Source: Treponemataceae bacterium (GTDB lineage: Bacteria > Spirochaetota > Spirochaetia > Treponematales > Rectinemataceae). Taken from it: 64,000 nucleotides of DNA. Positions within the stretch are counted from its first letter, which is position 1. The number at the start of each line of letters is the position of its first letter. Position numbers: made by a program. Below are positions 18,001 through 24,000 of this stretch, piece after piece. The DNA lies in the NCBI GenBank assembly GCA_963667725.2, contig CAXXHO010000003.1, positions 160,001 through 224,000 of the forward strand, in the 5' to 3' direction.

Positions 18001-21000
18001 CCGACGGGCGGCGAGCAATCCAAGCGCCGCCCCGACCGTCAGATAGCCGACCGCCTGAAGGAGCGGAACGCCTTTTTTGCCTTTTGCCCAGAGAAAATCA
18101 GCCGCTATGAGCAGTAAAAATCCTAATACCGTAAGCGAATCCTGTACCATTGTGAAATGCATTATGCTATAGTATCCTCTGCTTTGCCAGATAAAAGTTT
18201 ATTTTAGAGGTTTCGGCATGATTTTGGACGCATCGTCGCTCATTCCGGCATTGTCCTTCATTATTTATATCATCTTCATCGTATTCGGCATTTACAGCCG
18301 GAAAGAGAAAGTCGACACCTCATTCCTGCTCTATATGTTCTTCATGGCGCTGTGGAGCTTTGGCTCTTTCATGATGCACGCCAATACGGGGCTTTTTTCT
18401 CCCCTGACCTGGAACAAGGTCATGCTGCTGGGGCTTTTCGGCGGACCTATCGCGTTCCTTCAGACCATGATATATCTATCCGGTACCGACAAAAAACGCT
18501 ATCAGATATTTCTTTATATTGGCTATATCATATTCTTTTTCCTGATCTATCTCAATCTTTCAGGCAAGGTAGTGACGGCGGCGGGCTTCGATGAGAGCGG
18601 CTTCTATTATGTCCTTGGCAACGGTTCCATCCTGGCGTATTCGCTCTCCTACTTTTTCCTGGGCCTGTCAATTCTTCTTCTATTACGCCAGCTCAAGGCC
18701 AGCGACAACAAGTTCAAGAAGAAGACGCTTAGGCTTCTCATCATTGGCGTTGGCATTATCGTAGTCGGCGTCGCGGCGAATCTGTACAAGCCTATCGGAA
18801 AGTATCCCATCGACCTCCTCGCCACGACGATCAACGCCGCGATCATCTTCTTCGCGGTTTATAAATACCGTCTCATTCACTACTCCTCGGCGGTGCTCAA
18901 CATCCTCCTCACTTTCTTCGTGTCCATACTGACGAGCGCCCTTTTTCTCTTTTTCTTCGTGCCGGTTTTTCATATCAACAACGCGATTCCCTTTCCCCGG
19001 GTCCTCCTCCTGGCACTTATCCTGGGGTTCATCACCTCGATAATCCTCTCGCCGCTCCGGACGACAACCCTCTCCTTTCTCGAGAGGCTCTATGGCGGCA
19101 AGACCTTCACCTACTATCAGAGCCTGAGGGTGTTCTCGGCCAGCCTTACCTCCATCGTGGATCTCGAAACCCTGGGCAACCTCACCATGGAGAAAATCAC
19201 CTCCACCTTCGGCCTCGGATGGGCCCTGATGCTGGTCAACGATTTCAACGACAGGAATTTCAAGCTCAACGTGGCCAAGCAGCTGCCGTTCGATGGGCGT
19301 ATCATCGAAGGGCAGGATCAGTCGATAAGCCTGAAGCGCGGAAGCGAGTTCGTCAGGGTATTCGCGGTTCATCAGGGCAGCGAAAAGAGCGAAATGCAGT
19401 ACCTCTACGTGCCGCAGACCATGATAGACATCACCCTCGAGAAGGGCGAGATTTCCGAAACCCTGAAGGCCAGCCTTATCCTCCCCCTCAAGTTCAAGGA
19501 ACGCCTGAACGGTTTCGTCATACTCGGACCTCAGCTCGACAGGGACTATTACAACCAGTTCGATCTGGAGATGCTCCAGCTACTGAGCGTCCAGTGCTCG
19601 GTGGCCCTGGAAAACGCCATCACCTTCGAGCGGCTGAAGCAGCAGCAGAAAAGGCTACAGAACATCAACAACCAGCTGGAAATCAGCCGTAACAAACTCG
19701 AAGCCTTCTTCGACGGCATCACGACGCCGATCACCATTCAGGACATCAACTACAATATCATCGAAGTGAATTACGCCGCGCGCCGCTATTTTGAGAAGTC
19801 CACCGAGGAACTGATCGGGAACAAGTGCTACAAGATGTTTTTCAACAGGGACAGACCCTGCCTCGAGTGTCTGGCCCAGGACTGCCTCCATACGCGCCTG
19901 CCCTTCAACGCGGAGCGGCAGGACGTGAAGGGACTGCTTACCTTCTCGCTCAACTTCTATCCCATTCCCGTCCCCAAGACGGCCACGCCCATTTTCCTGG
20001 AGTTCTTCCAGGACATCACCAAGCAGAAGACCCTGCAGGATGAACTTATCCAGTCGGAAAAGTTAGCCGGCATAGGTACCCTGGTGTCGGGCATCGCGCA
20101 CGAGATAAACAATCCCCTCGGCGCCATCCTGGGCACGGCAGACCTGATGCTCCCCGAGACCGCCGAGGGAAGCAGGCTGCAGGAATATACGCAGGATATC
20201 GCCCGTTATGCCCAGAACGCCGCGGAAGTCATTCAGGACCTTATGGTCTATTCGCGGAAGACGAAGAGCCAGCCCGATATGGTCAATATCGTCACTATTC
20301 TCGAAAACTCCCTCAAGCTCGCCATGCGCGGTATGGATTTCGGCTCGATCACGGTGAAGAAAAACTATAATCAGACGAACGAGGTTCAGGCCAACGCGAC
20401 CGAACTGCAGCAGGTCTTCCTCAACCTCATCGTCAACGCCGTACAGGCCATGAACTCGGACGGAACGCTGACCCTGGCCGCGAAACAGGAAGATGCCGAT
20501 GTCATCGTGACCATCAAGGATACGGGCATCGGTATCAAGAAACAGAATCTCGACAAGGTCTTCAATCCCTTCTTCACGACTAAAGATCCCGGAGCCGGCA
20601 CAGGGCTGGGACTGAGCATCGCGCATCACATCGTATCGAAACTGGGGGGTAGGATCATCATCGACTCTGAAGAAAAGCAAGGTACGACCTTCCAGATAGT
20701 CCTCCCGGCGGCTAACATGGAGCGCAACAAGATCCGTTTCGTCCACGCGAAGGATACGCGCCAGCTCGAGGACAGTTTCTACCTGCAGCGCAAGGTCCTC
20801 GTGGGCGAAAAGGGCTATCTGGAGGAGACCATCCACCGGAGCGAGGACGAGAGCGCCTTCCACCTGCTGGCGTATAAGGGAATGCAGCCTGTCGGCACGA
20901 CAACGCTTCACTTGAGCGAAGTCGAGGGCGAAATCCCCATACAGAGCAATTACGATCTTTCGGAATACATGGACGGCACTCCCTACGCGGAAATAGACCG

Positions 21001-24000
21001 ACTGGCTATCATCAGGGAAGAGCGCGGCTCGATCGTGCCTTTCAGCCTCATGGTCCTCTCCTATCTCTACATCAGAGGCAAGGGCGTGGATAAGATGTTC
21101 CTTGATGTTTTCAGCGACGAGACAAAGCTCATCCGGATGTACGAAAAGCTGGGCTTCAGGGTGATCGGAACCTACAACAAGCCGCTCGCGTGCACGGTGA
21201 TGATGCTGAACCACGAATCGAACTACATCGACACCGTTTCGAAGATGGAGCATTTCGTCCAGAGCTTCTTCTCCCGCCTCATACCCAAGCTGGAGTTCGA
21301 CGGCGAGGACAAGGAATATCTCTACAAGACCATAAACGAGATAAACAAGAAAACCGAAAGGATAGGCGAGGGTTTCGCGCAGGACCAGAAAGAAAACGAC
21401 GCCGAAGCATAGCTGAAGCGCCGCCGAAGTTTAATAGAATATTGTGCGCTGCGTCTTGGCGGATGAGTAGATTCCTTCGATGATCTTCACCGCTTCCATG
21501 CCATCCTCCCCGGTGACCTTGGGTCTTGTGCCGGCGGCCGCCGCCTGGGCGAAATCGTCGATCTGAAGCGAGAAAAAATACCAGGTCGGCTCGATTTTCG
21601 AAAAGAATTCCCCATCTTCGCGTTTCCAGACATCAATCATCTTTTCCTGGCCGGGAATGGTCCAGATGTCGTTGTAGGGCGGCTCGAGGATGCCGCTCAT
21701 CCCCGCGATGAACATGGCGCCGCCGTCGGTCTGAACGCCCGCCGAGGCGCCCGAGCTTCCATGGACGCATACCTTGGCGAAAATGCCTGGCTTCTGGGAA
21801 TTGGAGACAAAGATGGAGCCGAGGCCGCCGTTCTTGAAGTGGACGGTCGCGACGGCGCTGTCGTCGACTTCGATGTAGGAATGGTTGGCGTTGATCCAGC
21901 TTCCGGATACGCCCGAGACCGAGCCCATGTACCAGGAGAGGAGATCGAACTGGTGGGGAGCCTGGTTGACGATGACGCCGCCGCCCTCGTGTTCCCAGGT
22001 GCCGCGCCAGGGGTCTGAGTTGTAGTAGGCTTCGTCGCGCCAGCCCAGGATGGTGACCTGGCCGAGGAGGGGGGAGCCGAGGAGGCCTTCGTCGATGGCG
22101 CGCCTGATGCGCAGGGTGGAGGGGTACCAGCGGCGCTGGCAGATGACGCCGAGATTGCGATGGGCGGCGAGGGCGGCGGCGTTCATGGCGTCGCAGTCGG
22201 CGACATGGAGGGCCATAGGCTTCTCGACGAGGGTGTGGAGCCCGGCGCCCAGGCATTCTATGGCGCAGGCGGCATGGAGAGGGTGAGGGGTGGTGACGAT
22301 GACGGCCTGGACGCCGTCGCGGTCGGCCATCTCGGCGGCCGAAGAGCGCGCCTCGATGCCCCAGCTCTTCGCGAAGGCCCGGGCTTTAGCCGCGTCGCGT
22401 CCGCAGACCGAGACGAGGGTGGCGTTTTCGCTCGCGGCGATGGCTTTCGCGTGGAGCTGGGCTACTTTGCCGTATCCGTAGAGGCCGAATTTTATCTTGC
22501 CCATGCCTTGTTTCCTCCTGGATTCAATGGGGTCATCGATGAGGCCGCCGGCACTGGTGCTCCGGCGCCGCTAAGGGGGGGCTCCGGAGCCGCGGGGGGA
22601 TGCCCCGGCGCCGGAGCCTTCAGGGCTCGAGCACGACTTTGAGCAGGCCTTTTTCGCGGGCGTGAAGCCTGGCGAACCAGGAGGCTCCCTCGGAGAGCGG
22701 GGCGATCGCGCTTATTATAGACTTCGCGTCGATCTTGCCGCGCGCGAGGAGGTCGAGCACGAGGGGGTATTCACCCGCCATGGCGCAGGAACCATAGAGG
22801 GTGAGCTGCCGCGTGACTATGGCCTGGAGCGGCATTTCCACGCTGGGGCTCACGTTGCCGATGAGGGTGACGGAGCCGCCCTTGCGCAGGGCGCCGATCG
22901 CGGTAGCGATCGGCGCCGAAGCGCCCACTGCCTCGAAGGCGCGGTCGAAGCCGCGGCCGCCCGAGAGTTCGAGGATGGCCGCCTTGGTCGCGGGGGAGGC
23001 GGGGTCGAGGGCGGCCGACGCGCCTGCCGCGAGGGCGGCTGCCCTCCGTTCGGGGTCGGTTTCCAGCGCGAGGATCATGCCGGCTGAATGAGCCCTCAGT
23101 ATTTGGATGAGAAGCAGCCCTATAAGCCCGGCGCCCACCACGACGAGAGAGTCGCCCATCTTTATGGGGGTGATGGCAGCCGCGTGCGCCGCCACCGCCG
23201 CCGGTTCAGCGATCGAGGCGGCCGCGAAATCCAGGGCTTCGGGCATCTTGTAGAGAATCCTCTTGGGAAGGACGATATATTCGGCGAAGGTGCCATCCCG
23301 TCGGTAATCGCCGCAGGAGACGCCGAGCACCTTCCTGTTGTCGCAGAGGTTCACCTCGCCGCGCTTGCAGTAGAAGCACTCGCCGCAATATTCGGTGGAA
23401 TCGAAGGTGACGCGGTCTCCTACCCTGAAATCCCTGACGCCGGCGCCCGCTTCCACGATTTCTCCCGAGGCTTCATGTCCCATCACGATGGGAGGAATGC
23501 GTCTTCCCGTCGAGCCGTCCATGCCGTGGACATCGGACCCGCAGATAGCGGACGCCCGCACCCTGACGAGCACGTCGTTTTCATCCCGGAGCTTGGGGTC
23601 AGGATAATCGCGGAAAGAAAACTTCATGTACTCTTCGAGAACGAGCGCTTTCACCGCTGAATCCTCGCCGAGCCGCCCTTCGCGAAAGAAACGACCTGAT
23701 CGAGGGTAGCCATGGTCGTATCGCCGGGGAAGGTCGTGAGGAGTGCGCCGTGAGCCCAGCCAAGGGCGAGCGCTTCCTGCGGATCCTTGCCTTCGAGCAG
23801 ACCGTAGATGAGGCCGGCCGCGAAACCGTCGCCGCCGCCGACGCGGTCGTACACGTCGAGTTCGGCGGTCGGGGCGGCGTAGCGCTCGCCCTCCAGCCAG
23901 AGAACGGCGCTCCAGAGATGGCGGTTGGTGGACTTGACGTCGCGAAGAGTCGTGGCCACCGCCTTCACGTTCGGCCAGCGCGCCGTGACCTCCTCGATCG

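Follow-up and report, generated by a model that had tools for sequence, protein, structure and literature searches.

The window, the whole 64,000-nucleotide stretch of Treponemataceae bacterium DNA analysed here, carries a three-gene module in which a multi-pass membrane histidine kinase with a C-terminal GNAT domain is accompanied by an ICMT/PEMT-like membrane protein and a REC-HD-GYP response regulator (Table 1). We propose, with a probability of roughly 0.4, that the kinase and the regulator act as a pair that lowers c-di-GMP and that the GNAT domain is an active N-acyltransferase of the FeeM branch, providing a second, kinase-coupled output. Taken at the level of sequence, the arrangement suggests that the sensor may also produce or alter a signal. 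A first-pass annotation had drawn attention to this protein; its account of the domain build and the fold is borne out by our analysis, whereas the spirochaete-wide spread that it assigned to the family is not. We found no paper on this kinase–GNAT architecture.

Domain build of the kinase and its gene neighbours

Pfam recovers in the 1,064-residue reading frame the same succession of HisKA_7TM, PAS_4, HisKA, HATPase_c and FeeM matches as noted before. HisKA_7TM (PF16927) scores 54.7 bits against a cut-off of 28.6, and a Kyte–Doolittle scan finds about 9–10 hydrophobic 19-mers, which agrees with the nine places previously counted, except that the last, at residues 262–280, lies beyond the earlier limit of residue 260. 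In this sensor region 56 of 300 positions are invariant among 10 orthologues. The GAF-like region that follows gains support from one homologue, P0007, where GAF_2 is strongest and exceeds its cut-off (30.8 versus 28.6 bits). PAS_4 (24.8 bits, cut-off 23.1) contains Cys537, Cys548, Cys551 and His558, all invariant in 10/10 orthologues. The kinase core (HisKA, 44 bits; HATPase_c, 94 bits) includes AHEINNPL, the H-box, and ATP-binding stretches such as GTGLGLS, mostly invariant among orthologues, with His628 as the predicted phospho-acceptor. Neither REC nor HPt is found in the kinase by Pfam. A linker of about seven residues joins HATPase_c to the GNAT region, to which two C-terminal helices belong.

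Table 1. Positions in the window of the three genes and of the domains of the kinase
Feature	Position	Strand	Evidence
REC-HD-GYP response regulator (P0063), predicted c-di-GMP phosphodiesterase	16476..17594	-	Pfam, motifs
180-aa membrane protein (P0002), putative divergent ICMT/PEMT-like methyltransferase	17620..18162	-	Pfam, Atlas
55-nt intergenic region separating the kinase gene from the divergent membrane-protein/REC-HD-GYP operon	18163..18217	.	sequence
Kinase gene (P0001), 1064 aa, ATG start, C-terminal GNAT	18218..21412	+	ORF list, translation, Pfam
Multi-pass membrane sensor region, residues 1-290	18218..19087	+	HisKA_7TM 14-220 and more hydrophobic segments
GAF-like region, residues 315-465	19160..19612	+	sub-threshold GAF/GAF_2/GAF_3 in P0001
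PAS domain, residues 492-604	19691..20029	+	Pfam PAS_4 498-604
Kinase core, HisKA 621-681 and HATPase_c 727-832	20078..20713	+	Pfam
GNAT domain (residues 840-1064), placed in the branch of FeeM / N-acyl amino acid synthases	20735..21409	+	Pfam, AF2, Foldseek

The neighbour on the other strand is, as reported earlier, a receiver–HD-GYP protein: Response_reg (97.6 bits) and HD_5 (133.1 bits) match together with HD, and Asp70, Lys120, HDIGK (233–237) and HHERWDGKGYP (286–296) are present. Such a gene lies divergently upstream of the kinase gene in 60 of the 61 assessable loci among the best 80 of 135 relatives, as well as in 10/10 loci of a smaller retrieved set, and the pairing spans 38–98% kinase identity; we presume P0063 to be the cognate partner. 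The first-pass interpretation, sound on the architecture and the FeeM-like assignment, had the GNAT domain in the place of a receiver and the kinase family spread spirochaete-wide, and both of these points are weakened. Because a REC-HD-GYP gene adjoins the kinase in nearly every assessable locus, the GNAT domain supplements a two-component pair and does not take its place.

The P0002 gene is located upstream of the regulator gene in the same orientation, and a gene of this type sits between the other two in 56/61 assessable loci. The listed scores of single proteins stay below the ICMT and PEMT cut-offs; across the family, Pfam ICMT matches 24 of 47 members (best E 1.7e-5) and PEMT 16 of 47, an RHP motif is invariant, and look-alikes in the Atlas are Ste14/PEMT clusters. 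Genes outside the trio vary between lineages, and the compared loci share no conserved ACP, fatty-acid or amino-acid gene beside the module.

Distribution and inheritance of the fusion

The kinase with an extra GNAT domain belongs to some free-living spirochaetes, and its family is confined to few lineages of the phylum: the GNAT part is present in 11/401 sampled genomes and 10/153 genera of the phylum, and in 0/50 genomes of the largest family of the source organism's own order. Among 185,579 species genomes scanned, 135 contained relatives, and of the best 80 of these, 77 are labelled as spirochaetes such as Rectinema and Sphaerochaeta. The previous statement that all labelled relatives are spirochaetal needs amending for the other three, namely one 'bacterium', one Solidesulfovibrio MAG and one Acidobacteriota MAG, and so does the identity range of 50–99%, since the GNAT part spans 41–98% and falls partly below 50%.

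Full-length collinear orthologues with 40–51% identity occur in 9/9 retrieved loci, and the full-length fusion is found in 71 of the loci of the best 80 of 135 relatives, at 38–98% kinase identity, with contig ends cutting 8 of the remaining 9. No split or GNAT-less orthologue was seen among these loci. At E ≤ 1e-100, the sensor half matches in 12 of the 401 sampled genomes, eleven of which are the GNAT-bearing genomes; the twelfth carries a 602-aa frame. Sensor half and GNAT domain thus appear to be inherited as a unit. The source genome holds no close stand-alone GNAT paralogue, its two other PF21926 matches aligning poorly (probabilities 7% and 2%). The strong C-terminal conservation noted in the first pass is also evident here: across residues 840–1064, 50 of 225 positions are invariant in 10 orthologues, and 34 positions remain so in 46. 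In the 10 orthologues the invariant share is 28% for the GNAT domain, while HATPase_c and HisKA reach 32–34% and the GAF-like part 9%; the GNAT domain is about as conserved as the kinase core, and under selection.

Family, fold and possible roles of the GNAT domain

Pfam places FeeM (PF21926) at residues 866–985 (35.1 bits, cut-off 27) and Acetyltransf_1 at 870–980 (23.9 bits, cut-off 20.7), whereas no NCBIfam model reaches its cut-off in the protein. Our AlphaFold model of residues 840–1064 is confident (pLDDT 90.6, pTM 0.86, against 86.0 and 0.81 before), and in Foldseek searches of the PDB FeeM (2g0b) again gives the top query TM (0.61–0.62, E 1.5e-9 to 4.3e-8), alongside YjcF (1q2y; E 3.1e-10, query TM 0.55) and SACOL1063 (5jph; E 4.5e-10, query TM 0.55). 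A profile of the GNAT family compared with solved proteins ranks SACOL1063 (5.7e-16) and YjcF (8.5e-12) ahead of FeeM (9.5e-5), which is not the nearest by sequence. N-terminal acetyltransferases also appear among the fold and sequence matches, and the Atlas look-alikes are FeeM/Acetyltransf_5 clusters.

A 'GLP-x-D/E-x-x-F/Y' insertion and the β4 Glu that follows it align with FeeM, in a weak alignment (E 0.23) made by way of a stand-alone relative instead of P0001; SACOL1063 has a gap there. Where the canonical acetyl-CoA loop Q/R-x-x-G-x-G/A would be, the domain has R936-[G/R]-[S/G]-[I/V]-[I/V]-P941. The β4 Glu925, Arg928, Arg936 and the motif-B residue Tyr975 are invariant in 46/46 orthologues. 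Fold and motifs do not tell whether such an acyltransferase would act on small molecules or on proteins. The surrounding clade is small, a search of 1.84 billion representatives giving 60 matches at E ≤ 1e-3; it includes stand-alone forms and, among the 29 matches scanned, one REC+FeeM (P0020) and one PilZ+FeeM (P0030) protein, which count among the nearest relatives that lie outside these kinases. We regard the clade as narrow and linked to signalling.

In the mechanism that we favour, the multi-TM/GAF/PAS kinase would autophosphorylate at His628 and hand the phosphoryl group on, at Asp70, to the REC-HD-GYP protein, which would then hydrolyse c-di-GMP; we infer these steps because the motifs are intact and the gene pairing is near-universal. 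The GNAT domain would be a catalytically competent enzyme from the branch of FeeM / N-acyl amino acid synthases, with acyl-ACP or a longer acyl-CoA a likelier donor than acetyl-CoA and an amino acid or another small amine as acceptor. Since it stands so close behind the ATP-binding domain, the conformation of the kinase probably governs its activity or how substrate reaches it; a predicted two-domain model of the ATP-binding and GNAT domains (pTM 0.70) does not demonstrate a fixed contact between them. The sensor would thereby gain a second, lipid-type output, a step that we base on the family placement, the conservation and the fusions of GNAT relatives to REC and PilZ. These, with the FeeM-type insertion and β4 Glu, keep an acyl-transfer output plausible. 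More speculatively, the substrate of the ICMT/PEMT-like protein may be this same lipid product or the sensor.

The same REC- and PilZ-fused relatives would suit a protein acyl- or acetyltransferase, with which the kinase would write two marks, phosphorylation of the regulator and acylation of a lysine on the regulator, the kinase itself or another target, in the manner proposed for PixB or for regulated Pat-type enzymes. SACOL1063 and the N-terminal acetyltransferases among the matches point the same way, and there are precedents in Myxococcus xanthus PixB, a protein of PilZ-PilZ-GNAT build that, according to passages of PMC8316039, does not function without its acetyltransferase domain, and in the GNAT 'Pat' gene of Porphyromonas gingivalis, which an excerpt of a review gives as co-transcribed with the orphan regulator RprY (PMC5706477). 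The FeeM-type insertion, the Pfam assignment to FeeM and the loss of a canonical pyrophosphate loop for acetyl-CoA argue otherwise, and we regard protein acylation as unlikely.

We are similarly doubtful that the domain is an input, that is, a non-catalytic or slow module that binds acyl-CoA or acyl-ACP, reports lipid or metabolic state and tunes the adjacent ATP-binding domain. The short linker, the non-canonical CoA loop and the lack of conserved biosynthetic genes near the module are all consistent with sensing, and strong conservation suits ligand binding equally with catalysis; the invariance of Glu925 and Tyr975, however, favours an enzyme, stand-alone and REC- or PilZ-fused relatives are more readily explained as effectors, and histidine kinases would not usually carry a sensory domain on the C-terminal side of the catalytic one. 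Very improbable, in our view, is a lineage-specific accident in which an acetyltransferase of the ordinary small-molecule kind, such as a detoxifying enzyme, became joined to the kinase and works independently of it. The unknown or housekeeping-type function of the nearest solved relatives and the restriction to few spirochaete lineages would fit such an origin, whereas retention of the fusion over so wide a range of kinase identity, the absence of split or GNAT-less orthologues in the loci examined, the short linker, kinase-like conservation and the want of a close paralogue speak against it.

Comparison with known systems

The domain resembles FeeM in its Pfam score above cut-off, the insertion before β4 and the β4 Glu, and differs from it in sequence, with 18–19% identity. 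FeeM, which is reportedly ACP-dependent with a known product, is a stand-alone enzyme, unlike the kinase-fused GNAT domain. SACOL1063 (5jph/5jq4) and YjcF (1q2y) give the best sequence and Foldseek E-values, and their likeness is strongest over the N-terminal 'R-K-V-F/L-V-x-E-x-G' helix region; at about 140 aa they have neither the 17-residue insertion nor the C-terminal helices, and they retain the canonical R-G-x-G-x-G CoA loop, unlike the present domain. SACOL1063 was crystallised with CoA and is presented, in part of PMC8666670, as being without known function. LuxI-type and CoA-dependent AHL synthases share a GNAT-derived fold with extra elements (BjaI 5w8a; profile E 1.6e-4, query TM 0.60 over 222 columns), yet the BjaI superposition has an RMSD of about 5 Å, and the kinase protein has no Pfam Autoind_synth match at E ≤ 0.1.

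Compared by the domain build described in portions of PMC8316039, PixB likewise uses a GNAT domain as the effector part of a c-di-GMP-linked signalling protein, a build echoed by P0030, and its authors liken it to a cAMP-activated mycobacterial acetyltransferase; its input is c-di-GMP binding rather than a histidine kinase. Closest in logic, not by homology, is the Rpf system of Xanthomonas, comprising the sensor kinase RpfC, the REC-HD-GYP protein RpfG and the synthase RpfF, in which, according to sections of PMC4504480, the sensor physically binds the enzyme that produces a fatty-acid-derived signal from acyl-ACP. Both systems pair a multi-TM sensor kinase with a REC-HD-GYP regulator, which in Rpf lowers c-di-GMP. 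RpfC, unlike the present kinase, is a hybrid with REC and HPt that binds a separate crotonase-type synthase, whereas the candidate synthase described here is a GNAT domain and covalently fused. If our reading is correct, the module would follow an Rpf-like logic with a GNAT synthase built into the sensor.

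The kinase and its gene neighbourhood

The earlier observation proves real, with a narrower scope and a richer context than had been claimed: judged from sequence, what is new here is a two-component system in which a kinase with a fused, putative FeeM-type acyltransferase lies inside a conserved kinase/ICMT-like/REC-HD-GYP module. The domain rows that the first-pass annotation had listed for the kinase are reproduced by our Pfam scan (Table), and GAF_2, related to the weakly detected GAF region, stands above its cut-off in the homologue P0007. The H-box AHEINNPL places the phospho-acceptor position at His628, and the ATP-binding stretches (24 residues, not spelled out here, together with GTGLGLS), which we take to be N, G1, F and G2, are present and mostly invariant among 46 orthologues, comprising the window copy and 45 of 80 loci picked for a complete GNAT domain. 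With both core domains above cut-off in the right order and the motifs kept, the protein is, on these sequence features, a HisKA/HATPase_c sensor histidine kinase; NCBIfam returns generic kinase similarity alone, with no equivalog at cut-off. Four Cys/His residues of the PAS domain (Table) are invariant in 10 of 10 orthologues, and residue 556 is Cys in four of these and Ser in six; the conserved set may bind a metal or a redox cofactor, which would make it a clue to the input signal.

Table: Coordinates of the features discussed; positions without a locus prefix count along the window, and residues along the kinase
Feature	Position	Strand	Basis or remark
ExbB (MotA_ExbB), ExbD, then a 381-aa ORF	14299-16492	+	ORF without Pfam family
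REC-HD-GYP regulator	16476-17594	-	Receiver and HD-GYP
Small membrane protein	17620-18162	-	Between regulator and kinase
Intergenic region	18163-18217		55 nt between divergent start codons
Kinase	18218-21412	+	1,064 aa, ATG start
HisKA_7TM	residues 14-220		Pfam
GAF	residues 315-465		Pfam, sub-threshold
PAS_4	residues 498-604		Pfam
PAS Cys537, Cys548, Cys551, His558	19826-19891		Invariant set
HisKA	residues 621-681		Pfam, 44 bits (cut-off 26.9)
HATPase_c	residues 727-832		Pfam, 94 bits (cut-off 26.4)
FeeM (PF21926)	residues 866-985		Pfam, 35.1 bits (cut-off 27)
Acetyltransf_1	residues 870-980		Pfam
Patatin-like lipase/phospholipase (example)	L016:11546-12643		
4HBT thioesterase (example)	L017:14406-14813		
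Membrane protein and regulator in one frame	L101:1910-3466	-	519 aa; Sphaerochaeta-labelled MAG
L032 variant locus	L032:2900-6750	+	Solidesulfovibrio-labelled MAG

The regulator, encoded upstream of the kinase, carries the acidic pocket, Asp70, Thr98 and Lys120 together with HDIGK and HHERWDGKGYP. In each of nine loci taken from other genomes it adjoins the kinase gene in divergent orientation, and a REC-HD-GYP gene lies divergently upstream of the kinase in 60 of the 61 loci that could be assessed (those among the 80 with the kinase N-terminus and at least 1,900 nt upstream; the remaining 19 were left out of the count). The small membrane protein gene, which shares the regulator's strand and lies 55 nt from the kinase start, occupies the space between them in 56 of these 61. 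Because what lies beyond these three genes varies from one lineage to another (in the window, purine genes and ExbB/ExbD; elsewhere, nitroreductase, CbiZ or aminotransferase), the conserved unit is the trio itself, and by this gene order the cognate partner of the kinase is very probably this regulator. As the divergent starts are so close, promoters of the membrane-protein/regulator operon and of the kinase must overlap or fall inside coding regions.

Other neighbours are more local. The ExbB/ExbD cluster, whose third ORF is possibly a TonB-like partner, is not conserved beside the module in the other loci. Genes for a patatin-like lipase/phospholipase and for a 4HBT thioesterase, both lipid-related, each lie near the module in four loci belonging to one group of related genomes, a proximity that may be plain lineage synteny.

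The window's membrane protein has no significant Pfam hit, to either ICMT or PEMT. Across 47 aligned orthologues (the window copy and 46 of 49 ORFs of 150-230 aa from 60 loci), a threshold of E≤0.05 leaves 24 with a match to ICMT (best E 1.7e-5) and 16 with one to PEMT (best 1.4e-4); four orthologues scored singly fall below the ICMT and PEMT cut-offs. Atlas look-alikes belong to Ste14/PEMT/DUF1295 clusters (0.91-0.95). An RHP motif never varies, and most of a C-terminal E/D...FP..F..Y..Y...VPF stretch is kept, with D152, F156, P157, F160, Y163, Y166, P171 and F172 invariant or conserved in at least 90%; both resemble ICMT signature motifs. These resemblances suggest, as a lead, that the protein is a divergent member of the ICMT/PEMT superfamily and possibly a methyltransferase. 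The single frame at L101 that joins membrane protein and regulator may be a genuine gene fusion or may stem from a sequencing error.

The GNAT domain, its relatives and its distribution

AlphaFold models residues 840-1064 confidently from a 23-row alignment (pLDDT 90.6, pTM 0.86), and this independently built model recovers the Foldseek pattern against the PDB described previously. There are at least 500 matches at E≤0.001, with all matches listed having the GNAT fold. The best E-values go to YjcF (1q2y) and SACOL1063 (5jph) at 3-4.5e-10 (TMq 0.55), and the highest query TM to FeeM (2g0b, 0.61-0.62); the CoA-dependent AHL synthase BjaI reaches a query TM of 0.60. With a profile of the family the nearest solved sequences are SACOL1063 (5.7e-16) and YjcF (8.5e-12), ahead of FeeM (9.5e-5) and BjaI (1.6e-4), and a profile of the N-terminal half matches SACOL1063 and YjcF alone in the PDB; SACOL1063 and YjcF are of unknown function according to PMC8666670. 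FeeM (PF21926) scores 33.5-45.3 bits in homologues and in the L032 variant, and Atlas look-alikes of the domain are FeeM/Acetyltransf_5 clusters. The LuxI-type AHL synthase family Autoind_synth (PF00765) is absent from the kinase's Pfam families at E≤0.1, and NCBIfam gives no score near a cut-off for the domain or four relatives; three of these relatives show faint similarity to the exosortase-associated acyltransferase TIGR03694.

The GNAT domain matches the kinase core in conservation (28% of positions are invariant in the former and 32-34% in the latter, with 9% in the GAF-like part) and follows HATPase_c after a spacer of about seven residues. A model of residues 700-1064 has a pLDDT of 84.8 and a pTM of 0.70, figures that cover the fold and not the CA-GNAT interface.

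Searched with HMMER against 1.84 billion representatives, the domain finds 60 sequences at E≤1e-3, 22 of them at E≤1e-10; one, P0015, is a low-complexity artefact. Among 29 hits scanned with Pfam, four are kinase-fused, P0020 joins a receiver and P0030 a PilZ domain to FeeM, several bear N-terminal extensions of 50-140 residues without a Pfam family, and the remainder stand alone at about 190 aa, most with FeeM above cut-off and often Acetyltransf_5 too. Receiver-FeeM proteins are scarce (four clusters in a search of 5.8 billion proteins), and a scan with their alignment, A7, yielded 20 distant GNAT matches at 24-37% identity and no others. A metagenome scan with the stand-alone relative P0014 found no relative. 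Two further PF21926 hits in the window's own genome were rejected as paralogues, being generic GNATs with hhalign probabilities of 7% and 2%. As a separate observation, the receivers of the REC-FeeM proteins are nearest (53-60% identity) to receivers fused to beta-ketoacyl-ACP synthase II (P0069-P0089; about 534 aa, one named Omnitrophota), an unusual class of response regulator with a lipid-synthesis output.

The first-pass annotation had called the architecture spirochaete-wide, which overstates its range: the GNAT part occurs in 11 of 401 sampled genomes of the phylum and 10 of 153 genera, and in none of the 50 genomes of the largest family of the window's own order or of the 75 and 38 genomes of two other large spirochaete families. 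Outside the window's genome, nine of the ten matches lie in frames of 1,035-1,069 aa, and the tenth (G070) in a 468-aa frame 766 bases from a contig start; two matches of the sample contain in-frame stops. Strong orthologues of the sensor half (E≤1e-100) occur in 12 of the 401 genomes, 11 of which are the GNAT-bearing ones, and weaker matches at 22-27% identity are other 7TM proteins. No GNAT-less orthologue was seen in the 401 genomes, leaving out the 602-aa open frame of the twelfth, and the kinase-GNAT architecture appears to be inherited as a unit.

A pattern built from ten kinase-fused GNAT domains, scanned over one genome for each of 185,579 species, found 135 stretches encoding a relative. 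The best 80 of these share 41-98% identity over the domain, and 77 carry spirochaete labels (Rectinema/Rectinemataceae, Treponemataceae-labelled MAGs, Sphaerochaeta, Pleomorphochaeta, Alkalispirochaeta and Sediminispirochaetaceae), the other three being labelled 'bacterium', a Solidesulfovibrio MAG and an Acidobacteriota MAG. The closest labelled relatives, at 98% and 96%, are Treponemataceae- and Rectinemataceae-labelled MAGs, and three of the loci belong to records without a MAG label (Rectinema subterraneum SURF-ANA1, Sphaerochaeta sp. PS and Pleomorphochaeta sp. DL1XJH-081). Of the 80 loci, 71 have the kinase-GNAT gene at full length and collinear; eight are cut by contig ends, and the last, L032, encodes a soluble 562-aa HisKA-HATPase_c-FeeM protein without 7TM, GAF or PAS, 81% identical to window residues 610-1062. 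Its gene follows those for a dCache kinase and a lone receiver. Rearrangement, mis-binning of the contig or a chimeric assembly may account for this locus.

Proposed function

By sequence, the kinase and the REC-HD-GYP regulator are both intact, their pairing is near-universal, and a conserved GNAT domain of apparent FeeM branch is fused to the kinase. We tentatively favour, with a probability of about 0.4, a kinase/REC-HD-GYP pair with a FeeM-branch N-acyltransferase as a kinase-coupled second output. The first output would run by phosphotransfer from kinase to regulator and on to c-di-GMP hydrolysis; in the second, the GNAT domain would transfer an acyl group to a small amine, coupled to the kinase's state.

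Glu925 (in A-E-I-D-R-L-A), Arg928, Arg936 and Tyr975 are invariant in 46 of 46 orthologues. FeeM aligned with the relative P0017 shares an insertion ('GLP-x-D...') followed by the beta-4 Glu ('AE-V-V-Q-F-A'), in a weak alignment (E 0.23), and the window's IPIQSNY...AEIDRLA aligns with P0017 in the broad GNAT alignment A1, so that the mapping onto FeeM runs through P0017; we take the beta-4 Glu to be FeeM's catalytic one. SACOL1063 and YjcF have a gap at the family's 17-residue insertion before beta-4 and match mainly over the N-terminal helix region. It is improbable, to our minds, that the domain is a pseudo-enzyme that senses a ligand. The canonical acetyl-CoA pyrophosphate loop after beta-4, Q/R-x-x-G-x-G/A, is not kept in the window's domain, which reads R936-G-S-I-V-P941 there; orthologues have R-[G/R]-[S/G]-[I/V]-[I/V]-P and aligned SACOL1063 has R-G-Q-G-M-G. 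The donor would more likely be acyl-ACP or a longer acyl-CoA; no conserved ACP gene was found near the module in the neighbourhoods scanned. An independent housekeeping acetyltransferase seems very unlikely. Should the domain prove to be an ordinary acetyltransferase or to sense a ligand, the fusion would add modestly to the known range of kinase architectures.

The acceptor might also be a protein, either the regulator or another target, which we think unlikely; a complex prediction for the GNAT domain and the regulator's receiver (score 0.00, mark 0.32) is uninformative either way on binding. A bolder and quite doubtful proposal is that the module is a self-contained lipid-autoinducer circuit for quorum or membrane state, Rpf-like and built of unrelated parts, with synthase and receptor in one polypeptide. 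ICMT's classic minimal substrate is an N-acyl amino acid with a lipid tail. Here, the FeeM-like domain would make an N-acyl amino acid whose carboxylate the ICMT-like membrane enzyme would methyl-esterify, and the 7TM region would sense the membrane-soluble product; the kinase would then act on the REC-HD-GYP protein so that c-di-GMP falls, and through its own conformation would feed back on the fused synthase. The word 'methyltransferase' is absent from PMC11580390 (the NAME paper, with FeeM among its references), which lends no backing to the methyl-ester idea.

To our knowledge, histidine kinases are normally thought to act through phosphotransfer only. If the favoured two-output reading is true, a kinase that has its own acyltransferase and is conserved together with a c-di-GMP phosphodiesterase and a candidate membrane methyltransferase would join two-component signalling, c-di-GMP and lipid-type small-molecule chemistry in a single module, and the fusion would open a way into a narrow GNAT clade, so far uncharacterised, whose domain turns up again in REC and PilZ proteins. 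The idea can be put to the test, as some records without a MAG label contain the locus and the soluble GNAT domain models confidently.

Comparison with known systems

We found no paper on a kinase-GNAT fusion or a spirochaete kinase-acetyltransferase in open-access PMC and bioRxiv full text. The likeness of the domain to LuxI-type AHL synthases is confined to the fold, as seen with BjaI. In the Myxococcus protein PixB (PilZ-PilZ-GNAT), as described in part of PMC8316039, a GNAT domain is a working part of a c-di-GMP-linked signalling protein, its substrate being unknown. By analogy, the nearest functional counterpart of the module would be the Rpf system, in which, according to excerpts of PMC4504480, the multi-TM kinase RpfC signals to the REC-HD-GYP protein RpfG and also binds RpfF, a synthase that uses acyl-ACP. 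RpfC is a hybrid with REC and HPt domains, neither of which Pfam detects in the window kinase, and RpfF is a separate crotonase, unlike anything among the module neighbours scanned; the window kinase is likewise paired with a REC-HD-GYP regulator, and in this the two systems are alike.
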